Made by a program: the position numbers and the translations under genes | Source of the DNA: a virus | Reading direction: 5' to 3' (one strand) | IMG/VR virus record: IMGVR_UViG_3300035523_000133 | Span: 695-64,694 of that record | Length of the DNA: 64,000 nucleotides | Shown: positions 3,519 through 64,000 of the stretch, piece after piece | Position numbering within the stretch: the stretch's first letter is position 1 | How the letters are laid out: every line of letters starts with the position of its first letter | The notes under the pieces: model-generated | What the model was told of the DNA's origin: nothing | Databases searched by the model: none | Seen by the model: only the letters and a program-made list of their open reading frames with translations

Positions 3519-4319
3519 TCAGTCATGGACCCAGTACTCCACCAGGCCCACCGCGGCGGTGCCGAACCCATCTACAAGGTACCCGTCGTCAAAGTTCCGG
3601 GCCCCGGCCTGCGCGATCGGAACCCCCTTGGCGGTCATGGCGCCGGGCCGAACCATGGCAACGTGCCCGATGTCCCCCGGGCGGTACCAGACGACGACGG
3701 CAGGCTGTCCCGCATTCGCGGCCGCAAGAGCGGGCCCGCTCAAAACCTTGCGCCAGCCCGCGGGCGCCCCGTAGTTGCGGAGCCAGTTGATTGTAACGTT
3801 GGCGTCCATCTCCCAGGCGTCCGCATCGCCGGGCCTTGCCGGTGAGCCAACCCCTGTCACCCAATGCGGGATTTCGGCGCCCAGAGCCCGAGAGCACCAC
3901 CACACAAAGACGTTGCAGTAGGTGTTGCCTTCGCGCGGCAGCAGGGCCGGGTTCTGCGCCACGCGGAACTGCTGGATGACGAGGTTCAGCAGGTCCGGCC
4001 ACCGGTCTTCGGGCTGAGAGATAATCGCCGGGGTTGCCATGTGCCAGGGCTGAACGTCCGCGCCTACCGGGGCGTCAGGGAGTGCAGGCAAGGGAAGACC
4101 GACGTAGAACACATGCTCAGGCGGTGGTGCGTACCGGGTGCGGAGGTGGGCGACTTCGCAGAACTTGCGGACGGCCACCTTGCCCCACTGAACGCCCCGA
4201 GTCGGCACACCAAGGGCCTGCAGAAACGCCCCGGTGTCCACAAACGCGGTCTCCACGCCAGCTACCGGCACCACATCCGCGCTCAAGGCGGTTCCGTTGA
4301 CAACAACACGCATCTTCAT
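3519..4319 (-). CDS. Endolysin: Cu-amine-oxidase-N-like domain + CHAP/NlpC-like Cys-His hydrolase
   Basis: TYCNVFV and GHVAMV...IAQAG; start moved to ATG 4319 (ATGA overlap with upstream gene). Confidence 0.7.
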   Translation of the reverse strand: MKMRVVVNGTALSADVVPVAGVETAFVDTGAFLQALGVPTRGVQWGKVAVRKFCEVAHLRTRYAPPPEHVFYVGLPLPALPDAPVGADVQPWHMATPAIISQPEDRWPDLLNLVIQQFRVAQNPALLPREGNTYCNVFVWWCSRALGAEIPHWVTGVGSPARPGDADAWEMDANVTINWLRNYGAPAGWRKVLSGPALAAANAGQPAVVVWYRPGDIGHVAMVRPGAMTAKGVPIAQAGARNFDDGYLVDGFGTAAVGLVEYWVHD

Positions 4320-12400: not shown

Positions 12401-12868
12401 CGTCGCCCCATTCAGCGTGATCTTAAGCGTGCCAGTGCCCGTGAGGTATAGACTTGCCCTGTAAGTTCGCCCTGGTTCGGCGTTGAAGGACACTCGCGTC
12501 CCTTGATACGCTGCAGCGCCATCGCAAACCACCTTCAGGCTGGCGCTTCCATGCCACGCTTTGCTAGAGTCACGCGTCAGGGTGGTAACCCCGCCGCCAT
12601 TCGTTACGAAACCAGAGATGTCCGTCTCCACGTCGGCCTGATTCGCGGTGAGCAGGTTCTGGTACCGCCCGTTTGGATACCGCGGCGCGCCCGCTGCTAC
12701 CTGTACCCCCGTCTCCGGGTGGTAGGCTACAGAGGCGCGCGTAAACGCCGGTGTAGGCCGGTAGAGTTGCACAGCACCGGGGGTAGACACCGCATCGGCT
12801 TGTGGGGGGAGGGCACCTGCCTGCCAGTCGGCTTGCGAATTGATGACTCGTTGTGCCGGGGTCGTCAC
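9440..12868 (-). CDS. Large tail-tip protein: two CBM-like domains + LamG/ConA-like domain + C-terminal hub-like region
   Basis: NLLT...VE, NGSFENG CBM starts; GTVEMW...WHHFAVSW...YIDG...DELHISNIARS LamG; GTGA coupling to TMP. Confidence 0.75.
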   Translation of the reverse strand: MTTPAQRVINSQADWQAGALPPQADAVSTPGAVQLYRPTPAFTRASVAYHPETGVQVAAGAPRYPNGRYQNLLTANQADVETDISGFVTNGGGVTTLTRDSSKAWHGSASLKVVCDGAAAYQGTRVSFNAEPGRTYRASLYLTGTGTLKITLNGATSVGAGGVTGPLITLGPAWTRYSLQVTADAVGGTINFIPNTDTPAQAITFWTDGWQVEEGGLTDWRPGGTGQGLFIEEGTTTLVTNGSFENGLTGWTQGNFYGALVWAAGSGGYMSTNAAKATNSSGATTYSQTLKQAVAVTNSATYTVTVAYQNTTASGGALILALESASGDNLAVQHSYGQANGYTRVSFSVIATETGTWYFKALLYLANGIMGYVDLVQVEPKTYATSWTDTTRANETATIPTTGLSPTQGTVEMWAYVNAMARRTTNYSELWCVRGQASGSYFSLLHATSANWELMTYDGTTAAASYTPDSVTPDGWHHFAVSWNGSTVKAYIDGALKITQNTPHMPAAFATSLYVGGGAVNGYLNTTFDELHISNIARSDAEIAAHATATSPLTADASTLALCPFDGNLVSDYPSQATITTRALDLAGPRRPTISAAITTTAPAGTAVTISRWRDSANGGAWNAWSAFTGGQISGCVLRYIQFEIILSTTAATATPTLSGLTVTINSFVLMIGGVDRTNLLRERTLRVDDRLNERSTAAMMLSVTSGLYIPGSLDAVVVYLANVVAFAGFAWDPTAKLMVEDGDRTEHWVNLNCVDNHLLADRRMYPETHDGLTCGQIVQYAITNYLAADGVTAGVIQDGPVVTRYVGDYNVSISKVLDDLAQQAGYYWRINPDKTLDFADRSTSLAPWNVTTSSRIRSIEVRKHPENYRNVQYGRPVQDVTSVRTDSRPGDGKTRAFTMNYPLATVPTVKVNGVTKAVGILGLDTGKDWYWQKGSQVIVQDDAGTILISTDTLAVTYQGLFPTRVRVENPAEIATRAAAEGTSGIYEASTDYDGLDSATAALEATTAELTRYARLNADVSYETEVVGLKAGQLQTITVPAVGASGQFLIQEVELQDFGGSVANQYRYTIKALDGSAVGSWIQFYKRLVANGQAFSIRDNEVLLKAKSLKDGVIVGDTLTYSKAGPESRTETMQTGFGEVAS

Positions 12869-15800
12869 GTCCTCACCCCCAGTTTCATCAGTGCGCCGGG
12901 CTGGTGTCTGATCATGGATTCAGCCAGTACGCGGCCATCCAGAATCTGCTGGATGATCATCGGCGCGCCGGACGCGTTGGCACCGGTCGACGCGATAGCT
13001 GGAGACACATTCGGCCTTGGCATGGAATTGGCGACGGTAGCAGCAACGCGATGGGTAAAGGCGCTCATCCGTTCCCATAGGTCGGACAGGGGGATGATCC
13101 CCTCTCCCTGCGGGTCGGGTGAGTCACCCACAACGGCCAGGGTCGGCCGGGTGGCGATTGCACCGCTGGCGAGGTGAGGCAAGCTGTCCACGATGTTCTG
13201 GCGGGCCTGGTCGCGCGACAGGTCCGGGAATGCTTCGACCACCAAGTCTACGGCGTCCTCGATAGCGCCCATCTGGGCCAACTGTGCAGCCTGATCGAGT
13301 TTGCCGATTCCGGGCGTCAAGGGCGCGCCCACGGGCTGCGCAGTCACGGGCGTCGTCTGCGCTGCGGCTGTTGGGGAAGGCGCAGCAATCGGCGTAAACG
13401 GTGTTGTCGCCGACCCGCTGGTAGTCGCAGATGGGACCGGCAGCGAAGGTCCCGCAACTGGTGGCACCATAGCCGCCAACGAGGCAACACCGGCGTTCCA
13501 GTCGGCGATGAACCGCTGCTGCGCGGAATGCTTGTCCTCGAACGAGGTTTTCAGGTCTTCCAATTCTTGCTTGTACCGCGTCTTGCGGTCTTCCTGTGCC
13601 CGGTTCCAGGCTTCAAATTCATCGGCCTGGCGGTCCTGGAGTGCCTTCAGCGCGGCCTTTTGCTGGTCGTCGTAGGCTTTCAGTTGGTCGGCCTGTTCAC
13701 GTGCGAACCGCTTCTTGCGTTCGGCCTGCCGCTCCTCGAAGGCCGTCTTATCGTCTGCCAACCGCTGCTCATAACGCTTCTTGGCGTCTGCCCGCTTGCG
13801 ATCGAACCCGAGTTTTTCGGCTGCGATTTCGGCTTCTTCCCGCTGAAGGCGCCTCGCCTGGCGCCCTTCCCAACGAGTCTTCTCGTCCTCAAGTTCGCGC
13901 TGATAGGCCTGGAGAGCCGTCGTTTGGCTTTCCTCCACGCCCTTTTTCTGGGCGTCCTGCTTATCCTTGAGGGCCTGAAGGTCAAGGTCCTTCTGCGTCC
14001 GCAGGGCGTCCATCTGATCCTGAAGTTGCTCTAGTTGACCCTTACGCTTCAGATCGGTCTCAAACGCAACCTGGGCTTCAAGGGCGGTGCCAACCCGCTC
14101 CTGCGCATCGGCGATGGCCTGCAAATCGCCCTTTGCCAACGCCTTGCCCAGTTCTTCCTGCGCCTTATGAACGCTCTTGGCGAGCTCTTCGCGCCGCTTG
14201 GCGGTCTGCTCGATCTCCTGCTGGTCCTTAATGGCATCCTGCTGGCCCTTCAGGGCCGCGACCTTAGCGGCGTAGTCTTTATCGACCGCCGCCCGCTCTG
14301 CATCCTGGCGCTTGCGCAGGGCCTCCAGCTCATCCGACTGTCGATCCTTGAAGGCATTGAGCAGATCCTGCTGGTGCCGCTCGTATGCGGTTTTCTCGCG
14401 AGCCTGGGCCTCCTTGAATCGGTCCAACCGGTCCTGCAGCGCCTGCTCTTCGGCGCGTTTTGCGTCCTCCTGCCTGCGCTCGAAGGCGGTTAGTAGATCC
14501 TGCTGGTGGCGTTCGTAGGCGGTTTTTTCCTGGGACTGCCCTTGCTCGAAAGTGGCCAACTTGTCCTGCTGCGCCCGCTCAAAGGTGGTCCTGGCGGCCT
14601 CCTGGCCGTGTTCAAAAGCAGCTAGCTGGTCCTCCTGCCCGTGCTTGAATGCTTCGGTCTGGTCCTGAACCGAACGGTCAAAGTCGGTCGTGGCCTTGTC
14701 ATTCGCCCGCGAAAACGCCACATCGAACTCTTCAAGGTACTTTTTCTTGTCGGCGGTAGCGTCGGCCGCCGCTTGGGACTCGACATCCCTGGTCGCCTGG
14801 GCGTTTTGCTGGGCCCGTCGCAGCGCGATGCTGGAGATATCCCGGTCGTTAGAAATGGGCGCGTTGCCGCTTTGGGCGTGAAGCTTGTCCATGTTCGCTG
14901 CCGTGGTTTCGATCTGCTCGTTGATTTTCGCAAGCTGGTCCCGCAGGTGGGCGGCGCTCTTGACGGTCGACACGAACTTGCCGCCGGGCGACACGATGGC
15001 GTTCCCCCGCGCTTCGGCCTTGACGATTTCCTCCTGCAAACTCTGGCGTTGCTCCACCAGCGATTTCAGGGCGTCGCGGTTTTTCGCTAGTGCGGCCTCG
15101 TTGGCGGCCGCCACGTTTGCGCGGGCAGCGACCGTGTTTTCCCGCAGTTTGTCGGTGTCGAGTGACACAGCTTTTCCGTGGTCGTCCCACTTCTTCACCA
15201 GCCCCGGGAACGCGTCGCCAATCTCCTGGATGATCCGCTTCTGCTCTTCGCCCGCAGCCTTGCGTTCGGCTTCGGACTTACCGCTGTCGTTCATCGCCTG
15301 GGTGAGTTGACCGTACCGACTGGACAGTTCGACCAGTGACTGCGCCTGCTTGTGCTGCTCTTCCTGGGCCCTCTTCTGTGCGTTGATGAACGCCGCGACC
15401 GCAATCGTAGCGGCAGCCAGCCCGGCGACAATCAGGATGATGGGATTGGCGGCCAGGAAGGTCATGGCCTTCGCCAGCAGGGCCACCGCACCGCCCGCTT
15501 TTTCGGCCGCAGTGATGAGAGCGTTCAGACCAGGCACCAGTTTGGCGATTCCCCCAAGCAGAGCAGCGAAATTAATCTGGGTAATCGCTACTGCGACCAA
15601 ACCAATGGTCGTGGCCAGGACGCCAAGCTTGACAATGGGCTCGTCCCATGCCTTGGCGATGGTCCTTGCAATCGCAGCAAGCGCCACACCGGCCGCAATG
15701 AACGGCAGAAGGGGGACCGTTGCTCTTAGCGCGTGAAGCGCCATCTGGGCCAAAGCTGGGACCATGGCGCCCATGATGGCCCCGGCGAGCAGCGTGATGT

Positions 15801-16683
15801 TTCGGTGAAGGCTTTCGGGGATGATCGCGTTGATAGCCTCGCGGATGCCGCCACTCTTCAAATGAGTCGTGAACTCCTCAAGCAGGGCGTTCGCCTTTCC
15901 CAGAATGCCCTTCAGGTCAAACGCCTGGATCAGGTTGGCGCCGATGATGCGCCCGGTTGCGGCCAGCGAATCCTTGGTGTTGGACCACATGCCTTCCAGG
16001 CTATGGCTTTGGGCCTCCATCAAGCCGCCAAATTTCGCGTTCATGCCTGCCAGGATGGCCGGAATGGCGACCGCAGAGCTGATTGCACCTTCCTCGGCCT
16101 TTTTCATGGCGCCCGGGACCGTGGTCCCTATGGCGTCAGCAAGCATTTGCCATGCCGGAATGCCAGCCTTAGCAAGTTCGCGCATTTCCTCGGCGGAAAC
16201 TTTGCCCTTGGCGCGCATCTGGCCGAGCGAGTTGGTCACCCGGTCAATCATTTCAGCGCCGCCGCCCAGGCCGGCCACGGCATCGCCTAACGTGGTCATG
16301 ATAGGCATCACATCTTTGGCGGCGAAACCAACGGCCAAGAGATGCTTCGAGGCTACCAGCAGGTCATTGAACTGGAACGGGGTGCGGGCAGCGAACTCTT
16401 CCATTTGGCGCAGAAACGTGTCGGCTTTTTGCGCCGATCCGAGCAGAGTCGTAAACGCAATCCGGTTCTGCTCCATGTCGGCGGCCAATCCGATTGACGC
16501 AGCGCCCAAAGCGCCCATAGCCGCCCCAACCACCGAAAAGGCCGTTACTACGCTCCGCGAGGCCGCCATCGCATCGGTTCCAAGCGTTTTGGTCATGGCC
16601 CGCTCGACCTGAGCCATGCCTTTGTTGAAGTCTTTCAGGTCTGCACCGACTACGACGAGGAGTTCGGCTAAGGTCGTGGCCAT
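12865..16683 (-). CDS. Tape measure protein
   Basis: Tape_meas-type N-terminus (FTTLLGSA...TPF...GKVSAEEM), TM segment, long 11-residue-periodic coiled coil; start set at MATTL after SD. Confidence 0.92.
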   Translation of the reverse strand: MATTLAELLVVVGADLKDFNKGMAQVERAMTKTLGTDAMAASRSVVTAFSVVGAAMGALGAASIGLAADMEQNRIAFTTLLGSAQKADTFLRQMEEFAARTPFQFNDLLVASKHLLAVGFAAKDVMPIMTTLGDAVAGLGGGAEMIDRVTNSLGQMRAKGKVSAEEMRELAKAGIPAWQMLADAIGTTVPGAMKKAEEGAISSAVAIPAILAGMNAKFGGLMEAQSHSLEGMWSNTKDSLAATGRIIGANLIQAFDLKGILGKANALLEEFTTHLKSGGIREAINAIIPESLHRNITLLAGAIMGAMVPALAQMALHALRATVPLLPFIAAGVALAAIARTIAKAWDEPIVKLGVLATTIGLVAVAITQINFAALLGGIAKLVPGLNALITAAEKAGGAVALLAKAMTFLAANPIILIVAGLAAATIAVAAFINAQKRAQEEQHKQAQSLVELSSRYGQLTQAMNDSGKSEAERKAAGEEQKRIIQEIGDAFPGLVKKWDDHGKAVSLDTDKLRENTVAARANVAAANEAALAKNRDALKSLVEQRQSLQEEIVKAEARGNAIVSPGGKFVSTVKSAAHLRDQLAKINEQIETTAANMDKLHAQSGNAPISNDRDISSIALRRAQQNAQATRDVESQAAADATADKKKYLEEFDVAFSRANDKATTDFDRSVQDQTEAFKHGQEDQLAAFEHGQEAARTTFERAQQDKLATFEQGQSQEKTAYERHQQDLLTAFERRQEDAKRAEEQALQDRLDRFKEAQAREKTAYERHQQDLLNAFKDRQSDELEALRKRQDAERAAVDKDYAAKVAALKGQQDAIKDQQEIEQTAKRREELAKSVHKAQEELGKALAKGDLQAIADAQERVGTALEAQVAFETDLKRKGQLEQLQDQMDALRTQKDLDLQALKDKQDAQKKGVEESQTTALQAYQRELEDEKTRWEGRQARRLQREEAEIAAEKLGFDRKRADAKKRYEQRLADDKTAFEERQAERKKRFAREQADQLKAYDDQQKAALKALQDRQADEFEAWNRAQEDRKTRYKQELEDLKTSFEDKHSAQQRFIADWNAGVASLAAMVPPVAGPSLPVPSATTSGSATTPFTPIAAPSPTAAAQTTPVTAQPVGAPLTPGIGKLDQAAQLAQMGAIEDAVDLVVEAFPDLSRDQARQNIVDSLPHLASGAIATRPTLAVVGDSPDPQGEGIIPLSDLWERMSAFTHRVAATVANSMPRPNVSPAIASTGANASGAPMIIQQILDGRVLAESMIRHQPGALMKLGVRT

Positions 16684-16720
16684 GTGCGCCCCCCCTTCCC
16701 ATCTGCAATCCAACCGCTGT

Positions 16721-16755
16721 AAAAACGAAAACAACCCAGCAGAACAGCCAGGTTG
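16721..16755 (-). terminator. Strong intrinsic terminator about 37 nt upstream of TMP start
   Basis: CAACCTGGC-TGTTCT-GCTGGGTTG-TTTTCGTTTTT on - strand. Confidence 0.7.
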
Positions 16756-29214: not shown

Positions 29215-30933
29215 CTATATGGAAATTACCCCTCTGGTCTCGTAGATTGAGCGCGTCGGCGGCGCCTTCAGCATCGCTCGAACATGGGCGTTCATCAATG
29301 CGGCAACCGGGTCAATTCGCTCCACGGATTTGGCTTTGTCCAGCATCATGTTTCGGTTGTGGTCTTCCCGAGTGAGCGCATTGCTCATGGCCCAGGTCAG
29401 GACTTCGTTCCCGTCATGACAGATCATGCGTGATAGCACGAGCGCCCGAAAGTCCTTGGTTGGCTCACTGAGCGTTTTCATGCCCTGCACAATCTCAACC
29501 ACTTTGTAGCCCTTGTCTGTCATCTCGTTAGCGAAGTTGGTTGCGCTCCACTGGTCAAAGCACAGCTCCTTGACAATCCACCCGTTGGCTGCGACCTGGT
29601 CCTGGATATATTGCATGACCAGACGCTGGTCGACCTGGGCGCCTTCTGTTTCCGTGATCCATCCGTCTTTGATCCATTTGTCGTATGGGACTTTGTCTGA
29701 CTTGCGATGGGCCGCGACCGTCTCCGCCGGCATAAAGGAATGCGAAAGGACGGCGAATTTGCCGTCCCCAAGGTCGAACTCAAACGCGACGCTGGTCAGG
29801 TCAATCCTGGCCGACAGGTCAACACCGGCATGGCATTCTCGGCCTTTGAGGTCCGGCATGATGTCGACCTTGCACGCCTTCCATTTCAGCATCGGCATGT
29901 AACCATCTTCGCGCTGGTCGACCCAAACATTCATGCTCTTGGTCATGAAGTCCCGCATCTTGCGGGGGTCGTCCAGTGCCTCATCGAGTTCGGTTTGTAG
30001 GAACTCCATGCTGAACGAGTCATCTGCCAGCAACGGGTTAGCCTTGGCCCAGTTCGCCGAATCCTTGATATCGTCGTCTTTGTCCAGTTGGGCGATATAG
30101 GCGAAGTACCGCTCATTCGGCGGTAGGGTGCCGTCCAGGGTCTTACAAAGATAGCTGTACTCTTTGTAACAGGGGCAGTTGAGACTATGGCCAGCAGTTG
30201 TGATGATCATGAGGAGGGGCTGCCGCCGCTTGGCCATGCCCTTAACGAGCAGATTGTACATCTCGTCTGTGCGGTGGGCGTGATACTCGTCGATGATGCC
30301 GAAATGGGGGTTGAAACCATCGAGGCTCTTGGTGTCCTTGGACAGAGGAACAAACTTGCTGTTTGACTTCAGGTGGTAGATCTTGTCCCGGCCCGGCTCC
30401 AGGCGTTTGAGCAGGTCCGGCGACGATTGCACCATGACCTTTGCGGAGTCATAGACAATCCGGGCTTGGTCCTTCTTGGTGGCTGTCGCATAGACTTGTG
30501 AGCCGGGCTCGCCCTTATGCCCAGAGGTCTTCCAATCCGGTGGCCGATCCGCCATCAGCATGTAAAGACCGATTCCGCTCAAGCTGGTGCTTTTGCCGTT
30601 CTTGCGCCCGAGTTGGATGTATGCTTTGCGAAAGCGTCGATAACCGGTGTCCTTATGGACCCAGCCGAACACGCTACCGAAGATGAATTTCTGAAACGGC
30701 GCCAGGATGATGGGTTCTCCGGCTAGTTCGCCTTCGACATGCCGGCAGAACCCGAAGAAATCGAAAACCCTCTCCGCCCGCTCGATATCGAACACATAGG
30801 GAAACCCATCTGTGCCTTGTCGGTCTATGTCACGCAGATGCCGCTCACATGCCAGCCGGACCCAATTCCCGGCGATGATCCGGCCCTCTGCCACGTCCAG
30901 GGCATACTGGGTCGTTGCATCGAGGTCGGGCAT
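29215..30933 (-). CDS. terL: Terminase large subunit
   Basis: RKNGKST Walker A, IIDEYH Walker B, ITTAG, GVDLS, FDQW, RIDPVAA. Confidence 0.97.
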   Translation of the reverse strand: MPDLDATTQYALDVAEGRIIAGNWVRLACERHLRDIDRQGTDGFPYVFDIERAERVFDFFGFCRHVEGELAGEPIILAPFQKFIFGSVFGWVHKDTGYRRFRKAYIQLGRKNGKSTSLSGIGLYMLMADRPPDWKTSGHKGEPGSQVYATATKKDQARIVYDSAKVMVQSSPDLLKRLEPGRDKIYHLKSNSKFVPLSKDTKSLDGFNPHFGIIDEYHAHRTDEMYNLLVKGMAKRRQPLLMIITTAGHSLNCPCYKEYSYLCKTLDGTLPPNERYFAYIAQLDKDDDIKDSANWAKANPLLADDSFSMEFLQTELDEALDDPRKMRDFMTKSMNVWVDQREDGYMPMLKWKACKVDIMPDLKGRECHAGVDLSARIDLTSVAFEFDLGDGKFAVLSHSFMPAETVAAHRKSDKVPYDKWIKDGWITETEGAQVDQRLVMQYIQDQVAANGWIVKELCFDQWSATNFANEMTDKGYKVVEIVQGMKTLSEPTKDFRALVLSRMICHDGNEVLTWAMSNALTREDHNRNMMLDKAKSVERIDPVAALMNAHVRAMLKAPPTRSIYETRGVISI

Positions 30934-53536: not shown

Positions 53537-54118
53537 TCAAACTTCGGTCGATGCAAACGAACCCGCGGAGCTTTCGCCTTTTTCTACGATTAGGTGATCG
53601 CCGGGCTTGAGTGCGCGCCCCCTCTGCAAAGGGCCAACACGGACTCGGAAGCGGCGATAGCAGCTAAGGCTGCAAAACTTGGCTTTGCGCGGGGATGGTT
53701 GGATGAACACTTTCCCGCATTCTGCGCAGACGATGGCCGGTCTTGGGGTCTGGGAAGACAGGAGCATTCCTGAACTAAACTGGATGCCGCGTTTGTGGAC
53801 CATGAGATGATGACTGGCGCAAAGCCAGGCGACATTCTCGTGTGAGTTGTTCATAGGGTTTCCGTCGATGTGATGACGATGGACACCTTTCTTGTCGCAG
53901 TTGCCAACTTCGCATGTTTTGGGCTCGGGGTAGATCCGTTGGCATCTCTGGTGACCAGTAGTTTCTGGCGCAGTACTGACGACCCCGACCCAAGCCGGGT
54001 GGTTCTCCATGCGTCCGAAACGGCACCGAGCGCACATCCGCGCCGAACGTGTCATAAGTCGGCCACATATTGGGCACGGAATCTTGTAGTCGTCGAGGTT
54101 CTTGTGTGGCATTGCCAT
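53537..54118 (-). CDS. HNH endonuclease with Zn ribbons
   Basis: CPICG, HRHHIDGNPMNNSHENVAWLCASHH, CAECGK..FCS..C. Confidence 0.85.
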   Translation of the reverse strand: MAMPHKNLDDYKIPCPICGRLMTRSARMCARCRFGRMENHPAWVGVVSTAPETTGHQRCQRIYPEPKTCEVGNCDKKGVHRHHIDGNPMNNSHENVAWLCASHHLMVHKRGIQFSSGMLLSSQTPRPAIVCAECGKVFIQPSPRKAKFCSLSCYRRFRVRVGPLQRGRALKPGDHLIVEKGESSAGSFASTEV

Positions 54119-54762: not shown

Positions 54763-56412
54763 TCATCTCTTTCCTGCCGCTGCGGCGTCGTTCGCTTCCG
54801 CCTCTTCGAGGAGAGCGAACAGTCCGCCGTTGTAGGGTTTCGTGTCGGTCTTGCGTTTTTGCCGTGCCCGTCCGGTCAACCGGGCTTCGATGATGGACAG
54901 GTTCCGCTCGTCCAGATCGATGCCTATGGTTGTAGGGGCGCAATAGTCGCCATCCACCGTTACGGGCTTCACCGCTTCGTTCACGCCCTGCGCTGTGGAG
55001 CCGCTGCCGAAGAAGGGGTCAAGGGCGATTGCGCCTTCATAGCCCGCTCCACATCCGCAGTCGGTGTAGCCGATGATGTGCCCGACGAGTACCGGACCCA
55101 TCCGCAAATCGTGGTTCGCCCGTACCTGCCCCGCCAATCCGGGATCCAGATTCTTGCCTCCGATTTCGCCCGGTTGCCGCCCCGCCCGACCGCTGCCGCC
55201 CCGGTACTCCCGGCTCACCGCATATACCGCTTGCCGGGGGCACCCGCACCTTTTGCAGATGGCCTGCGGTATGGTCGCCTTCGCCGGGATTTCACAGATG
55301 CCGGGCGGGTAGCAGGCAAAGTGGGCGAGAGGGAAGGGTGAAAGCGGCACGAACCACAGGTCGCCCGGGTTGCGTCCGAGGGGGTTGTCGATACGTTCCG
55401 CCTGGCTTGTCCGCCCGAGACCGTTGACGCCTGTTTTGCCCTCTGTGTAGGTGCTGCCAGACAAGCCTTTGACCATCGGCTCCCGGATTTCGTCCAGGTT
55501 GTAGAAGTAGTCCTCAGAAACCCACAGGGGCCTCTGCTTGGGCTTGCCGTTGGGCAGGTATACCTGATTGCCCGCCTCGTCCAAAACGGGCTCGTACTCC
55601 TGCCTGGGCTTCTTGGTGACTACTTTGCACGTCTGCTGGTGAACCCACCTGACCGGCTTGTTGGACCTGACGAAGTGATACCACTGCTCCCAGGTCTCTT
55701 TGAGCCGGTCCTCTGCCGAGATGGGCATTCCGTTGCTCGTCAGGGCGACGGTTTCGCTGTCGTCCGGGCGATCGGTGGCATCCTTGCCTTTGAACCAAAT
55801 GGGCTTGTTCCGGCAAATCCAGCCCCGGTCAATCATGGCGATGAGGAAACGCTCAGGAATGGCCGTCAAGGATTTGCGGGGGATGGATGACTTTCCGGGC
55901 TTCCATTTCGGTTGGCCTTCTCGCAGACCGCCTTCGTTGTAGTCACCGCCTGCACCACCGCTGCCTGACCACGTATCCCCGAGGTTCACCCAGAGGCTTC
56001 CGTCCGGTCGTAGTAGCGTGTCGCCGATTGCACAGAACAGGTCGACCAGTTTGACGATGAACTCTTGGGGATTGCTCTCGCTGCCGATTTGCCGATCCAC
56101 GTACCGAGCGCCACAGGTTGGGCACACTCCGCCGGTCCGTTGGAGCCACTTCGCAGCATTGGCGGAAAGTCCGTTGCCAGACCCCACGCCATCGCTGCCG
56201 GGGTCGTCTGCCCACGCCGGCGGTTGGTGCTTGCAGGACGGGTCGCCCCCTACCCATGAGCCCGTGCCGTAATTGCGCTTCCACAGGTACGGCGGCGAGG
56301 TAATCACGGCGGAGACCTTATGCGGACAGCGTTCGGCAAGGCGCTTGACGGTCTCCAGAGCGTCCCCGATGTAGACCTCTACGCCGGGCAGGGTCAGACG
56401 TGGCTCAATCAC
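54763..56412 (-). CDS. Beta-class amino-MTase (SPPY, likely N4-cytosine) with Zn-finger insertions
   Basis: GDALE, ITSPPY, NLGD, WICRNKPIWFK, RNPGDLW, HFACYP, LDPFFGSGST, GIDL; GTG start after GAGGAG. Confidence 0.9.
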   Translation of the reverse strand: MIEPRLTLPGVEVYIGDALETVKRLAERCPHKVSAVITSPPYLWKRNYGTGSWVGGDPSCKHQPPAWADDPGSDGVGSGNGLSANAAKWLQRTGGVCPTCGARYVDRQIGSESNPQEFIVKLVDLFCAIGDTLLRPDGSLWVNLGDTWSGSGGAGGDYNEGGLREGQPKWKPGKSSIPRKSLTAIPERFLIAMIDRGWICRNKPIWFKGKDATDRPDDSETVALTSNGMPISAEDRLKETWEQWYHFVRSNKPVRWVHQQTCKVVTKKPRQEYEPVLDEAGNQVYLPNGKPKQRPLWVSEDYFYNLDEIREPMVKGLSGSTYTEGKTGVNGLGRTSQAERIDNPLGRNPGDLWFVPLSPFPLAHFACYPPGICEIPAKATIPQAICKRCGCPRQAVYAVSREYRGGSGRAGRQPGEIGGKNLDPGLAGQVRANHDLRMGPVLVGHIIGYTDCGCGAGYEGAIALDPFFGSGSTAQGVNEAVKPVTVDGDYCAPTTIGIDLDERNLSIIEARLTGRARQKRKTDTKPYNGGLFALLEEAEANDAAAAGKR

Positions 56413-56449
56413 CGGGGCCTCACTCCTCACTTCGCCGCCGTGTTTGCCG

Positions 56450-56686
56450 TCATGATGAATGGGACTCCTCTGGAGTGGGGATGGGCAGTACCGCTGCCAG
56501 GGCGTCGTTTTTTGCTCTCGCCAAGGTGTTGGCCGCCCCCGTTGCAATGATCTTGCCGGTGACCTCGCAGACAACCGCCCAGGGGTATTCTTCGGGGCCG
56601 TGCTCTTGAACGCTCAGAAGCAAGGGGTCGATGCTCCACTCCCACACAACACCCAGCAGTCGCCCAACTTTACGCTCCCAGGTCAT
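56450..56686 (-). CDS. Hypothetical protein
   Basis: Start MTWER. Confidence 0.5.
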   Translation of the reverse strand: MTWERKVGRLLGVVWEWSIDPLLLSVQEHGPEEYPWAVVCEVTGKIIATGAANTLARAKNDALAAVLPIPTPEESHSS

Positions 56687-57525: not shown

Positions 57526-57723
57526 CTACTCCTCCTTTGGCTTACGCTTGGCCGCTCGTTCCGCTTTGCGTTCGGCCTTCACCGCCGCATTCAACCAGTC
57601 CAGCGTCATCAGGGAGACGGTCCGGGGACTGAGGGGAATGCCTGACTCCGTTACCGCTACCTTGACTTTATCCAGAGCCTCGCAGATGGTTTGCGGCTCC
57701 AGCATTCCAAGCAGGTGATTCAT
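57526..57723 (-). CDS. Hypothetical protein
   Basis: 65 aa, coupled. Confidence 0.55.
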   Translation of the reverse strand: MNHLLGMLEPQTICEALDKVKVAVTESGIPLSPRTVSLMTLDWLNAAVKAERKAERAAKRKPKEE

Positions 57724-58430
57724 CGTTCTTGTGCCCTCCTATCTGCTAACCAGGTCCCGTAACAGTAGGTATCCATAACGGGTCGAACCTCTGCCGGGTC
57801 CAACCGGATGCCGTCTTGTGGCGGGTTCGCTTTGGCGCCCTTCTCCCGAGTCAGGCGGAGCAGGTCCGCTTTTGCGTCGGCGCCGGGGTCGGTGTGATCA
57901 AGCCATTCGTGGAAGTCCGCACACGCCGGGAGGTTGTTCCAGTCCTCGTTGCGGGTCGATTCGGCGCCTCGGGGGATCAGATGCGCCCGGCTGATGAGCC
58001 CCTTCCCCGGTACCCCATCCACTCCGGGCCGTTGGTGGGCGTTGCATCCGCAGACACAAGGCAGGATGTGGACGGCGGCTTCGCATCTGCGATCGGCCAG
58101 TTTGAGCCGCCGTGCGCGTCGGCCCTCTCGTTTCAGGGTGGTGTTGCGGTTGACGCGTCCCCGGACGTATGTAAGGCCACCCTTGGCGTAGCCGATGACG
58201 TTCCGCCCGAGAATCTTCACGGCTTGCAGCCGCGTGTATCGCCGCAAAGGCTTGCGCTGCCGCCGCTTTTTGGGTTTCTCCTTTTGCCGCTGTTGATGGC
58301 GCAGGATCTCAGGAACCGTTGCCAGTTTCAGGGGGCTGATTTCTTTGGGCTTCCCGGTGGCCTTGCCCTTCTGTCGAAAGCCGCTCGACTCCCGGCGCTC
58401 TCGCGGTTCGGGCTTCGGACAAGCCTGCAT
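57720..58430 (-). CDS. Basic protein with C-terminal HNH-like (NinG/DUF968-type) domain
   Basis: RCE...CVCGC...RAHLIPRG...NNLPACADFHEWLD. Confidence 0.6.
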   Translation of the reverse strand: MQACPKPEPRERRESSGFRQKGKATGKPKEISPLKLATVPEILRHQQRQKEKPKKRRQRKPLRRYTRLQAVKILGRNVIGYAKGGLTYVRGRVNRNTTLKREGRRARRLKLADRRCEAAVHILPCVCGCNAHQRPGVDGVPGKGLISRAHLIPRGAESTRNEDWNNLPACADFHEWLDHTDPGADAKADLLRLTREKGAKANPPQDGIRLDPAEVRPVMDTYCYGTWLADRRAQER

Positions 58431-58449: not shown

Positions 58450-59793
58450 TCAGTTCCCGAGGACTTCCGCCCTGATGGTGTCCGCCAGGTCCGGATCGCC
58501 GCCGTCATGCTCCCACCAGTGCTTGATCCATCGGATATCGTCGTCGGTCACCGTCTTGAATCCCGGCAGTCCCTTCTCGATTTCGAACAGGTCCCGGAGG
58601 AATTCCGCCCTGACTCCCAGCAGGTAGGGGCCGGGGGTCACGTCGGTTGACGATGCTCCTGTCGTCATGGCGGCTTCGGTCCACCTCACACCGGCCAGGA
58701 AGGCTAGGAGTTGTGTCGTGGGGACCTCGCCCGCTGCCGCCTCCCAATCCTGTCCTGACGGTTTGTAGTGCTCCCGCTCTGCCCACCGGGCGCCTGTTTC
58801 GAAGGCGTCGATCGAGGCTTCGTCCTCGCCAGCGTGGACCTTGGCCGCCATCGTCCGGGCCGTGCAGTTCAGTCGCAGTCGCCCGTTTCGCCCGATTGGG
58901 TCCCGCTTGCTGTAGTCGTTGCGATACCGCAGAATCTTGTCCCGGAAGGCGAGGAGCGGAGCGTACTCAGGGGTCACGACGCGAACCATGTTTCGCATGG
59001 AGATGTCCTCGGGTACGACCGTGCAGACGAAGCAGCCGAACCGGGAACCGCCGCAACTGGCCGTCCGCCGGTCGAAATCGAGCACGCATTCGCCGCCGTG
59101 GGCGCCCTGGTACATCTCGAAAAGTTCCTCGTTGCTGCCGCCCCAAGGCTTGGGGAACAGTCGCAAATACTCCCATACGTTATCGTTATCCCATTCCTGG
59201 ATGGGCTGGAAGCTGATTCCTTCGGTCAGGCTGCCGCAGGTGCCGAACTTGCCTTCGATGGCGTGCGCCTCGATGCTGGCACCCCGGGCCTTCGATTCCT
59301 TCTTGCGGCTGCCCAGGAGTTGGAGAATGCGCCCACTCTTGTCGATGTTGGCCCTGACCCACGTTTCCGAGGGTTCGATCTTCAGGCGGCCGGTGCACCA
59401 CCGGAAATCCTGGGTGGGTGCTGGGTAGCCCCGGCCGATCAGGCAGACCCAGAAGGATTGCTTGGGATCTGGCGTCACCTTGACCACCGTCACCGGCAGG
59501 TCGTATCGGGTCGCCACATCCCGCAGTTCGGCGTGGCACTTGTCCAGCCAGGTCGCCACCGCGGGGTTCTCGACCAGCGTGTCGGAGGAGACCACATAGA
59601 CCGGCTTCGTCCGCTGCTCCGCAGGCAGGGCCATCAGCATCCGGTAGGTGAGTTGGACCACTGCGGAGGAATCCTTGCCGCCTGAGAATCCAATCACCCA
59701 GGGTCGCCCGTCTGGCCGCAGGTAAACCTCCCGCATCTCCGCTACCAGGGCGTCTATCACCGGTTGCTCGACCGGCTCATGGTCGAAGTCCAT
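58450..59793 (-). CDS. dndC: DndC-like DNA phosphorothioation sulfurtransferase (PAPS-reductase fold); possible ACG start at 59820
   Basis: PWVIGFSGGKDSS, VYVVSSDTLVENP, SFWVCLIGRGYPAP...FRWCT.RLKIEPS, LLGSRKKES..R, PWGG.N..L..MY.GA..GEC, CG.SRFGCFVCTVV.ED.SM, GPY. Confidence 0.88.
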   Translation of the reverse strand: MDFDHEPVEQPVIDALVAEMREVYLRPDGRPWVIGFSGGKDSSAVVQLTYRMLMALPAEQRTKPVYVVSSDTLVENPAVATWLDKCHAELRDVATRYDLPVTVVKVTPDPKQSFWVCLIGRGYPAPTQDFRWCTGRLKIEPSETWVRANIDKSGRILQLLGSRKKESKARGASIEAHAIEGKFGTCGSLTEGISFQPIQEWDNDNVWEYLRLFPKPWGGSNEELFEMYQGAHGGECVLDFDRRTASCGGSRFGCFVCTVVPEDISMRNMVRVVTPEYAPLLAFRDKILRYRNDYSKRDPIGRNGRLRLNCTARTMAAKVHAGEDEASIDAFETGARWAEREHYKPSGQDWEAAAGEVPTTQLLAFLAGVRWTEAAMTTGASSTDVTPGPYLLGVRAEFLRDLFEIEKGLPGFKTVTDDDIRWIKHWWEHDGGDPDLADTIRAEVLGN

Positions 59794-59908
59794 GCGGAGT
59801 TGCCGCAGTTGCCTGGCCGTTGGTCTCGCCTCCCGTTCACCGTAATTTCGTTCCTGTCAACCCGGCCCTTGGACTCCGTCCCTCTCCGCTCGGGTATCCC
59901 CTAGGGGT

Positions 59909-60457
59909 TCAGGCGGTTTTCCGCCGCTTTTCACGAGGGGGCACCGTCCGTACCTGAAGCCGTTGCCGTGCCCAGTTGACCCGGCTTTTGACCGTGCCTA
60001 TCGGGATGCCCAGCCGTTTGGCGACTTCTTCGAAATGCACGCCCTCAGCAATTGGGATGAGACAGGCCGCTTCTTTGGGCGTCAGTAGTCGGCGGACCTC
60101 GGCCAACTCCTCACGGATGATTACCTCGTCCTCAATGCTTTGCGGGGTGGGGAGTGGCGCTGCAGTCTCCAGAGACACCGTTTGCGTTTCGCCTTGCTTG
60201 CGCCGCATGGTCCGCACCCGATCGTTACAGAGTTGCCCCACCACCCTGAATAGCCAGTGGCGGAGGTGCTGAGAGTCCTGGACGCTCCCGGCGTGACGCC
60301 ACAGGCGGACGAACGTGTCCTGGACAATCTCCTCCGCGTTCTCCCAATTGTGAACGTAGTCGTTGGCGTAGCGTTCCAGCCGACCACGCCAGTAAGCCAT
60401 CAGCGGTTCCCAGGCCATTTCGTCACCCGCCGCGAGCCTCGCCAGAATCTCCTCCAT
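59909..60457 (-). CDS. ECF-type sigma-70 factor
   Basis: AEEIVQDTFVRLW...WLFRV...CNDRVR; region 4 FEEVAKRLGIPIGTVKSRVNWARQRL. Confidence 0.92.
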   Translation of the reverse strand: MEEILARLAAGDEMAWEPLMAYWRGRLERYANDYVHNWENAEEIVQDTFVRLWRHAGSVQDSQHLRHWLFRVVGQLCNDRVRTMRRKQGETQTVSLETAAPLPTPQSIEDEVIIREELAEVRRLLTPKEAACLIPIAEGVHFEEVAKRLGIPIGTVKSRVNWARQRLQVRTVPPREKRRKTA

Positions 60458-60481: not shown

Positions 60482-62239
60482 TTAGCCGAAGTTGAACTTG
60501 GGTTGCTCGATATCCGCTCCGACCCGTGCCTTTGCGATTCGAACGTAGTCGGGATCCCGCTCGATCAGTGTGCAGTCGAACCCTTCCGCTTCGGCGGCTT
60601 TTGCAGTCGTGCCGGATCCGCCGAAGGGGTCTAGTGGTTTGCCGCCCGGCGGAGTCACCAGTCGCACCAGCCAGCGCATCAGCCCGACCGATTTGATTGT
60701 GGGGTGGAAGTTGCGGGCCGCTCGCTTCGTTCCCTCAGCCTGGAATGTGCCAGGGTTCGCCTCGCCGCTTGACCAGTTCAGCGGCTTTTCCTCCAGGGCT
60801 TCGCAGCCTCGGTTCCTTTCGCTTCGGCTGGCCTTCGCGGCGTAGAGGAAGATGGCTGTCTGAATGTCTTCGGGCTCCCATGCGAACTGTGGAAAAAAGC
60901 GAGATGCTCCGCCTTGGTCCTCGTACTCCGCTCCGGTGTGGGTCATGCCATACCCGTTGCCCGGTTGCGCCGATGCTCTTGGTTGACCTTTCCGGCTTGC
61001 GCTTTGCCCGCTCTGGCGGTCCAATTCGAGTACCGGGCATCCTCCAGCACATTCCCAGGCTTCGACCGTCTCCATGCCATTCTCGTCAGCACGGTCGCCG
61101 TCCCACTTGCGGGTCCCAATCGGTTGGTCTGGGTTCAGAATCCCGCCCTTGGAGGTGCTACCGCCGGTCTGCGCCCATCCGCTGCCGCCCTTCACGGTCT
61201 TCGTCCCCGCCCTGCGGCAGTCTGCATGGTGGGTCAGTACCAGATTCGCAGGAAACCGTCCAAGCGATTCGGCCTTGGCGACGTTACGCCCGATGCGCTC
61301 ATTCGCAGCTTCCATCGCTTCCTCGTCGTGCTTCCAGGGTCGATCCCATCCGTCCGAATCACTGCTTGTCCGCCCTCCATCGAGGCTTTCGCCGGGCTGG
61401 GTCTTGATTCGGCACCCGTCTATGTTGAGCGCCCCTACGCCATGCTTCAGGAGGTTTTCCGCCACGGTGTCTTCGCTCGGGGGCTTGCGGACGAGGAGCC
61501 ACTGTTCTTGGGATGGCTTGATGTCCGTGCCGAACCCTTCCCACTTCGCCGCCTCGGGTGAGCCGGGCGCTGTAATGGCCTCCTGCTGCCCGGCGTAGTC
61601 CGGGGCGCTCTGGAATTGCAGCCCGTCGCTGCCTATGTAGGGGTTGCGCTGTTCTCTGAAGCCGATTACAAATCGCTTTCCGACCGGTGGCCCCCAGACG
61701 GTCGTGGCAATCACGCACCACTTCCAGGCCCATCGGTCTTTGGGAACGCTGGTCCAGAGCCGCTTTGCCCACCGTATCGCCTTTGGTCTGTGCTCCATCA
61801 GCCATTCGGTGAAGAGCATGAAGTCGATGGCTTTTGACACATCCAGGCTTTTCGGGAAACCCGAACCAAAAAGGTGTTGGATTGAATTACGAATTTCGAA
61901 CCCCGCCGCCCGCAGGCCCAGCCCGGTCAGGTCCGCCGTCCGGGGAAGTGCCCAGACCACCCCGTAAGCGCCGGGCTTCAGGAGTCGCAGGGCCTCCGTC
62001 GCCCAGTCCGCTGTGAAGGCTACGAATCCTGCTTCCCACGGCTCAAGGGCGAGTACCTGCAGGCTTTCCAGGACGGCCCGGCCCTTCTCCGACTTCGGCA
62101 CGTACTTGCTGTGAGAGTCCCACGCCTTGCCCATGAAGCTGACCCCCGCCGGCGGGTCCGTCACCAGGGAGTCGAACGACTCGGGCGGTAACGTCGGCAT
62201 GATGTCCATGTTGTCGCCCTGCAGTATCTGGTAGTCCGT
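60482..62239 (-). CDS. Beta-class amino-MTase (DPPA motif, likely N6-adenine); conserved domain begins upstream of first ATG (62209), ACG at 62239
   Basis: YQILQGDN, VTDPPAG..FMGKAWD, FGSGFPKS, GRFPAN, FHPTIKS, LDPFGGSGTT, IERD. Confidence 0.88.
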   Translation of the reverse strand, partial: TDYQILQGDNMDIMPTLPPESFDSLVTDPPAGVSFMGKAWDSHSKYVPKSEKGRAVLESLQVLALEPWEAGFVAFTADWATEALRLLKPGAYGVVWALPRTADLTGLGLRAAGFEIRNSIQHLFGSGFPKSLDVSKAIDFMLFTEWLMEHRPKAIRWAKRLWTSVPKDRWAWKWCVIATTVWGPPVGKRFVIGFREQRNPYIGSDGLQFQSAPDYAGQQEAITAPGSPEAAKWEGFGTDIKPSQEQWLLVRKPPSEDTVAENLLKHGVGALNIDGCRIKTQPGESLDGGRTSSDSDGWDRPWKHDEEAMEAANERIGRNVAKAESLGRFPANLVLTHHADCRRAGTKTVKGGSGWAQTGGSTSKGGILNPDQPIGTRKWDGDRADENGMETVEAWECAGGCPVLELDRQSGQSASRKGQPRASAQPGNGYGMTHTGAEYEDQGGASRFFPQFAWEPEDIQTAIFLYAAKASRSERNRGCEALEEKPLNWSSGEANPGTFQAEGTKRAARNFHPTIKSVGLMRWLVRLVTPPGGKPLDPFGGSGTTAKAAEAEGFDCTLIERDPDYVRIAKARVGADIEQPKFNFG

Positions 62240-63999: not shown

Positions 64000-64000
64000 G

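Follow-up and report, generated by a model that had tools for sequence, protein, structure and literature searches.

Phosphorothioation (PT) is, to our knowledge, the sole natural modification of the DNA backbone, and the locus described here raises the question of what a phage would do with one protein of the Dnd machinery in the absence of its partners. The locus lies in a stretch of 64,000 nucleotides (positions 695 to 64,694 of IMG/VR virus record IMGVR_UViG_3300035523_000133; hereafter the window), where a gene for a DndC-type protein occupies positions 58450-59820 on the minus strand. The window is a prophage, located at contig C9:53747-117746 of a 6.26-Mb genome in 99 contigs (G000), which is probably that of a soil bacterium recovered from a soil metagenome. 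The gene appears to represent a phage-specific lineage of DndC which has kept its catalytic motifs and lost the tail that docks onto DndD. Tentatively, we propose that its product is a DNA sulfurtransferase that would act independently of DndD and DndE, receive its sulfur from a host cysteine desulfurase and protect the phage DNA, an explanation which we hold to be possible but short of probable.

The NCBIfam model TIGR03183 (DndC) matches the window protein with 356.9 bits, which exceeds its curated cut-off of 290.4; this match is confined to profile positions 2-358 of 447. The DndC models of PADLOC give 366-380 bits. The PHROG families named 'PAPS reductase' (424, 12882 and 2302) reach only 51-97 bits, and the Pfam family PAPS_reduct (PF01507), which matches residues 33-211, only 43 bits. 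When the CysH-type paralogues of the same genome (contigs C40 and C41), which are separated by a branch of length 5, are taken as the root of a tree, the protein falls inside the DndC family. Scores and tree agree with the preliminary description of this DNA, in which the protein was placed much closer to DndC than to CysH. The 43-bit match, the long branch and a context of DNA modification speak against a CysH or PAPS/APS reductase. SspD (of Ssp) and BrxP (of BREX type 4) share the PAPS-reductase-like PP-loop core, which works with different partners in those systems; their PADLOC models give 44.9 and 46.2 bits, respectively, against 380 for DndC, and no SspB, SspC or BrxC-like partners were found among the Pfam matches of the seven loci discussed below, so that these identities were also rejected. 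A further PADLOC model labelled 'Type II methyltransferase' (PDLC03333) matches residues 15-337 with 257.7 bits. This model seems to have been built from DndC-like proteins, and automatic 'MTase_II' calls derived from it may be misleading.

The full DndC-type motif signature claimed in the preliminary description was recovered, and in alignments every element of it is invariant among the relatives. The ATP pyrophosphatase signature, or PP-loop, SGGKDS (residues 37-42, positions 59668-59685) is the same in 16 members of the phage clade and in canonical DndC. It is followed by the loop GYPAPxxxFRW with C133 (59395-59430) and by the cysteines C236, C247, C254 and C257 (59023-59088). According to the structure of the DndC from E. 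coli B7A, in which the cluster ligands are Cys146, Cys273, Cys280 and Cys283 (PMC12193691), C133 is equivalent to Cys146 and the other four to Cys262, Cys273, Cys280 and Cys283, and all predicted [4Fe-4S] ligands have been kept. The AlphaFold model of the protein has a predicted local distance difference test (pLDDT) score of 79; the low values in the cysteine-cluster stretch are expected of an apo model, from which the cluster is missing. Foldseek returned generic PP-loop enzymes only, the best being APS reductase 2goy (template modelling scores 0.30/0.56), along with NcsA and LarE, and the likeness to APS reductase and other PP-loop enzymes is confined to the N-terminal core. No solved relative of DndC or TdpC was found in PDB sequence searches with the window protein, the family profile and a Thermus phage homologue as queries.

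Close relatives of this protein are few. A search of 5.8 billion proteins gave 17 sequences as best matches (47-75% identity, 349-672 bits), and the next matches, at 308 bits or less, are the start of the canonical DndCs of about 505-535 residues. In a library of representatives at 50% identity the clade is reduced to one representative (611 bits), followed by a match of 381 bits. The 18 sequences are monophyletic (Shimodaira-Hasegawa-like approximate likelihood-ratio support of 99) on a stem of length 1.4, and lie nearest to the subclade holding the DndC of the host, as judged by a quick tree method with the CysH-type root. A scan of 185,579 species-representative genomes gave no further member, all its matches being canonical DndCs with at most 48% identity. 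Of the 50,697 deposited phage records searched, 17 match at up to 44% identity, and the phage genomes among these 17 do so at no more than 31%.

What sets the clade apart is its C-terminal end. In the alignments all 18 members stop at about residue 395 of the 507 residues of the host DndC and at about residue 418 of the 543 of the Salmonella DndC. Compared with canonical DndC they lack approximately 110 residues, comprising the DndD-binding segment (B7A residues 433-482) and the terminal helix. In the DndC of E. coli B7A (540 residues) these are the interfaces with DndD (Fu et al., PMC12193691), and the substitutions L458D/E462A/R471A abolish the DndC-DndD pull-down (PMC12193691). In the window protein the last conserved helical domain (residues 385-447, positions 58453-58641) is also the end of the protein, with no docking tail beyond it. 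These statements are taken from alignments, as a crude tblastn table of tail length against DndD presence mis-scored insertion-bearing proteins and one frameshifted gene and was set aside. In their catalytic parts the tail-less proteins are intact: the PP-loop, the five cysteines and the loop have remained invariant although identity within the clade has fallen to 47-75%, and the motifs point to a functional enzyme rather than a relic.

The part of DndC that reads DNA has also been kept, although with a different content. In B7A DndC a 'specificity loop' (G135-W145) lies in the major groove, and its three central residues track the PT motif, TRS being found with GAAC/GTTC, TQN or NQT with GATC, and RxK/R with GGCC (PMC12193691). 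The phage loop (G122-YPAPTQDFRW-132) carries the triplet T-Q-D, which is outside the three described classes, whereas the host DndC has R-Q-G. Thirteen of the 18 sequences of the clade have a T-x-D/E triplet. Among 103 canonical DndCs it does not occur, and not one of them has an acidic third residue at all. Within the clade the middle position varies (T-Q/R/S/N/A-D). A clade-specific triplet with a varying middle residue fits enzymes that would read DNA motifs of their own.

The genomic surroundings were compared in the window and in the six relatives with enough flanking DNA, all of which are in phage-like contexts. The genes found around these relatives include Rad52, Mu Gam, a SNF2 helicase, a serine recombinase, sigma factors, HNH_3, DNA methyltransferases and many small genes with no assignment. 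In an all-against-all BLAST of the seven loci DndC was the sole gene common to all of them, and no conserved partner gene was found; a protein of about 180-230 residues is common to three loci, the window not being one of these. None of the seven loci contains dndA, dndB, dndD or dndE, whereas DndD accompanies DndC at almost every canonical locus that has sufficient flanking sequence. DNA methyltransferases occur within 1-9 kb of DndC at five of the seven. For the window the search was extended to approximately 85 kb spanning the whole prophage, where tblastn with the DndA, DndB, DndD and DndE proteins of the host gave nothing better than E = 0.09, which upholds the earlier statement that the phage has no other dnd gene.

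In the prophage the DndC gene is part of an early block on the minus strand, in the order N6/N4 DNA methyltransferase (60482-62209), extracytoplasmic function (ECF)-type sigma factor (59909-60457, directly upstream of DndC and in the same direction), DndC, a protein of 236 residues (57720-58430, 20 bp downstream) and a second N6/N4 DNA methyltransferase (54763-56574), which is 60% identical to the methyltransferase beside the DndC relative in locus L006. No minus-strand terminator-like site was found between the genes of this block, the gap between sigma factor and DndC included. Just past window position 64000 there are two C5 cytosine DNA methyltransferases (L090:12441-13760 and 14456-15532, plus strand of that locus), upstream of DnaD-like and DnaC-like genes; these methyltransferases and replication genes share the strand of DndC. 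Together with the two N6/N4 enzymes of the window the phage has at least four DNA methyltransferases in addition to DndC. The preliminary description had placed DndC between an ECF sigma factor and an HNH-like gene. The sigma factor was confirmed, whereas the second label is a lead only: the 236-residue protein, which has a basic N-terminal half, gave no Pfam, NCBIfam, PHROG or PADLOC family match, has no homologue in the six related loci, and its C-terminal half is likened to HNH/NinG/DUF968 proteins through Atlas look-alikes at 0.92-0.94, which are not a test.

The description of this DndC as an orphan is true for the phage but not for the genome that carries it. Contig C22 of the same genome encodes DndB (503 bits), DndC (647 bits, 507 residues), DndD (535 bits), DndE (121 bits) and a DndA-type cysteine desulfurase whose 472 bits are just below the 480-bit cut-off of the model. 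On the opposite strand beside this operon are PbeC (693 bits) and PbeA (827 bits), of the PT-based Pbe type of restriction, the order in the island (G000 C22:134288-145499; L003:8789-19999) being dndB-C-D-E-A and then PbeC and PbeA. Two large genes upstream of the island, for 983 and 684 residues, have no family assignment. The dnd operon (C22:134288-140434) is poorer in G+C (57.8%) than the genome as a whole (63.9%). In tetranucleotide composition contig C22 fits the rest of the genome with r = 0.998 and the C9 flanks with 0.993-0.998, against 0.95 for the prophage and 0.89 for the dnd island. The only dndD and dndE genes are hence in a compositionally foreign island on another contig, and not in a normal operon lying just outside the window. 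Over residues 12-291 the phage protein and the host DndC share 46% identity. The genome also encodes at least three further IscS/NifS-like cysteine desulfurases.

A second lysogen allows the phage gene to be seen without such a background. Genome G008 (= G001), from the same bacterial family (4.8 Mb, 98% complete), carries a phage-type DndC (66% identity) on a contig of 87 kb that also holds prophage-like genes, and no canonical DndC, DndD or DndE was detected in it. The DndE search had been validated by a positive control on the genome of the window, which is the only one of 15 genomes of the family to have dnd. G008, a single case, argues for retention of the phage gene where no DndD and DndE exist.

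Loss of the tail is not restricted to this clade. Alignment shows 52 of the 130 family members in a FastTree phylogeny to be tail-less, although truncated gene calls may account for some of them, and well-supported branches force at least 13 changes of state. In Polaromonas (L046:9899-16878) a tail-less DndC (393 residues) is followed by DndD (692 residues, 282 bits), an FtsK/EssC-like ATPase (512 residues) that replaces DndE, a protein of 186 residues with no family match and DGQHR_dnd_1; this locus is, going by its gene content, a variant dnd operon. A chromosomal island (L106:4830-10132) comprises a DndB-like gene, a tail-less DndC of 395 residues, a DGQHR/DndB-domain protein of 443 residues, a protein of 136 residues and an HNH_4 protein, with neither dndD nor dndE among its genes, and may be a PT-related system that has not been described. 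At L105 a tail-less DndC-like gene stands beside a DUF1156 methyltransferase, again without dndD or dndE. The gp3 protein of Thermus phage Tsatsa (L108:1710-2669; 319 residues, 31% identity) has the same loop, the CxxC and the terminal helical domain, and no tail. Tsatsa is a cultured phage of 20.8 kb, in which gp3 is solitary and adjoins a replication gene.

A stand-alone modification enzyme fits these observations best, because the parts for catalysis and DNA reading have been kept, the docking part is gone, the phage offers no partner and the gene belongs to a block of modification genes. Among the options raised in the preliminary description, the one that fits best would accordingly be DndC acting alone with the IscS of the host. 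In such a scheme DndC would be made together with the early DNA-modification genes of the phage, among them several methyltransferases. It would accept persulfide sulfur from a cysteine desulfurase of the host, either DndA or one of the at least three IscS/NifS-like paralogues, and would bind DNA through the retained specificity loop, with T-Q-D where the host enzyme has R-Q-G. Backbone phosphates would then be converted to phosphorothioates at a motif of its own, with neither DndD nor DndE taking part. The sulfur marks would shield replicating and packaged phage DNA against PT-based systems such as the Dnd-Pbe of the host, and against ordinary restriction enzymes wherever the scissile bond is thio-substituted. 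The autonomy, the DNA backbone as substrate, the protective role and the sulfur donor are all points which we infer. Doubtful, though conceivable, is the more ambitious form of the proposal, namely that this would be a minimal single-protein PT enzyme of the Dnd type and the first phage-encoded writer of a backbone modification, needing only a housekeeping cysteine desulfurase, having its own specificity (T-x-D) and serving against restriction, and that the tail-less DndC-like genes more broadly (52 of the 130 sampled) would be a hitherto overlooked class of PT writers without DndD and DndE.

Several points weigh against the stand-alone enzyme. Canonical systems make no PT if any one of dndC, dndD and dndE is missing (PMC8569181), so that autonomy requires a mechanistic bypass. 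There is a precedent in tdpC, which PMC12914056, citing An et al. 2025, gives as a single gene sufficient for PT synthesis; however, PDB searches detected no sequence relationship to TdpC, and the precedent is functional only. Loss of the tail alone is compatible with a DndD partner, since the tail-less DndC of Polaromonas directly precedes DndD. An acidic residue in a DNA-reading loop could mean a different substrate. The evidence from a dnd-free host consists of one genome. The genome of the window is a metagenome bin, in which composition ties contig C22 to C9 without proving the connection, and this host does possess DndD and DndE, with which the phage DndC could co-operate there.

Such co-operation would mean that the phage DndC replaces or supplements the host DndC in the DndD-DndE machine, and thereby, in Dnd-positive hosts such as this one, speeds up the PT marking of replicating phage DNA or retargets it to a motif dictated by the phage loop. 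The complete dndBCDEA and Pbe genes in the host genome, the grouping of the clade with the subclade of the host DndC, the difference between phage and host in the loop reported to set the motif and the natural pairing of a tail-less DndC with DndD in the Polaromonas operon are all in favour of it. We nevertheless consider it unlikely, as all 18 members are without the documented binding region for DndD and without the terminal helix, G008 has the phage-type gene without dndD and dndE, and a phage gene that depended on dnd would rarely be useful when only one of 15 genomes of the family has that system. The earlier suggestion that the phage borrows the Dnd machinery of its host has lost ground for the first two of these reasons. 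The missing surface could also be that of a decoy or sulfur sink, unable to complete the DndCDE pipeline and competing with the host DndC for the persulfide of DndA or IscS, or for DNA sites, so that PT marking or Pbe restriction is disturbed. A phage-borne paralogue of a defence protein, in a host that possesses this very defence, would suit the role, and phages do counter Dnd by other means, the answer found in the literature searched being the kinase JSS1_004 (PMC12345140). Yet the strict conservation of the ATP-binding loop, the cluster cysteines and the DNA loop exceeds the needs of a decoy, the gene is also present in the dnd-free G008, and loss of host PT in a host that restricts by PT would be expected to harm the lysogen. 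One would expect a decoy to retain the surface for docking, while catalysis could be dispensed with; the reverse is observed, which makes this role quite improbable and weakens the earlier idea that the protein poisons the host complex.

The other two explanations accept an active enzyme and change its target or its beneficiary. The fold is shared with APS reductase and the thiolases of the PP-loop type (2goy, NcsA and LarE match best in the PDB), the PHROG models named 'PAPS reductase' do match, and an acidic loop residue is foreign to the 103 canonical DndCs; these features would agree with a PP-loop/Fe-S thiolase whose substrate is a DNA base, tRNA or a nucleotide, or with an auxiliary gene of sulfur assimilation, the function suggested by the name 'PAPS reductase' that such phage genes usually receive. 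It is improbable that the protein has such a substrate, given that its DndC score is 8-fold above those of the PAPS reductase models, that the DndC-specific GYPAP...FRWC loop and the post-cluster helical domain have been retained, and that the genomic context is one of DNA modification, not of sulfur metabolism. Very improbable, finally, is a benefit to the lysogen, in which the prophage would PT-mark the whole chromosome. The marks would then be an epigenetic or antioxidant trait, or the modification half of a prophage-borne exclusion system whose PT-sensing nuclease has escaped recognition. A nuclease-like gene does lie 20 bp downstream, a further HNH gene is found at 53537-54118, and other tail-less DndC genes in chromosomal islands are beside DGQHR and HNH_4 genes. 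The adjacent nuclease-like gene, however, is not conserved with DndC in related phages and resembles the common NinG/DUF968-type phage nuclease, and DndC itself, as part of the lytic early block that shares its strand with the genes for replication and structure, is not in a moron-like position.

The limits of the DndC gene deserve some comment. A single open reading frame runs along the minus strand at 58450-59793, giving 447 residues when counted from the first ATG (at 59793), with the stop codon at 58450-58452. Because the conserved N-terminal motif of the relatives ('RQL..DFDH') is encoded upstream of this ATG, at 59794-59859 on the same strand, the true start is probably upstream as well, near 59820. 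No ATG, GTG or TTG occurs in frame between the upstream TGA (59857-59859) and the ATG; an in-frame ACG at 59820 stands 8 nt behind GGGAGG (59829-59834), and there is a CTG at 59808. A non-canonical start codon is therefore likely for this gene, and the conserved in-frame extension up to the ACG is included in the coordinates 58450-59820. Farther along, residues 310-384 approximately (58642-58866) form a variable insertion of about 75 residues, recognised from alignment gaps and the structural model, in which it is confidently helical (pLDDT 82-95). It is carried by the clade members P0001, P0002, P0003, P0005 and P0017, and gapped in P0007, P0008, P0011, P0013 and P0014 of the clade alignment.

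The remainder of the prophage has a conventional set of structural genes, with the terminase large subunit (29215-30933), the portal, the protease, the major head protein and the tape measure (12865-16734) all on the minus strand. An exact 17-bp direct repeat flanks the prophage, the two copies (window 3775-3791 and G000 C9:39628-39644; E = 0.02 in the space searched) being 74.3 kb apart, and these repeats may be the cores of the attachment sites. No integrase was found near the prophage ends or near either repeat when the serine recombinase of a related phage was used as query.

Compared with known systems, the clade shares with the canonical DndC of E. coli B7A, Salmonella Cerro 87 and Streptomyces lividans (TIGR03183) the PP-loop, the equivalents of Cys146, Cys262, Cys273, Cys280 and Cys283, the GYPAPxxxFRW loop and the post-cluster helical domain. 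It differs in being about 110 residues shorter, phage-borne and not beside dndD or dndE, in its T-x-D/E triplet and in its identity of 48% or less to any canonical DndC found. TdpC of TdpABC, reportedly sufficient by itself for PT synthesis, is a functional precedent for a PT writer without DndD and DndE but belongs to a cellular defence operon, and no sequence relationship with it is detectable in PDB searches. The phage genes called 'PAPS reductase' (the three PHROG families mentioned above, Tsatsa gp3 and the 'DndC' of Pseudomonas phage phiC725A) are likewise solitary, phage-borne PP-loop/Fe-S proteins. With 357-380 bits on DndC models, compared with 51-97 bits on the PHROGs, the clade described here resembles true DndC much more closely, and by these scores it is the closest of the solitary phage genes. 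Orphan phage DNA methyltransferases, which are present in the same gene block, are also stand-alone enzymes of the early region that pre-empt host restriction, although they methylate bases whereas the chemistry proposed for DndC would place sulfur in the backbone. Solitary genes called 'PAPS reductase' or 'DndC' have been mentioned in passing for phages and prophages (e.g. PADLOC hits in prophages, PMC12429752). In the literature searched we found no study of an orphan, solitary or phage-encoded DndC and no demonstrated phage PT writer, nor is loss of the DndD-docking tail together with a clade-specific loop described there.

In that literature PT appears only as a cellular defence trait, the work of multi-protein machines (Dnd, Ssp and BREX-4) or of TdpC. 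If the proposal made here is true, phages would write backbone sulfur themselves as a counter-defence. The protein would then offer a minimal Dnd-type enzyme for studying both the exchange of oxygen for sulfur and the reading of DNA by the specificity loop, and the many solitary 'PAPS reductase' genes of phages would gain a function that can be tested. The two lysogens, one in a host with a full Dnd-Pbe system and a related one without it, provide a natural experiment.

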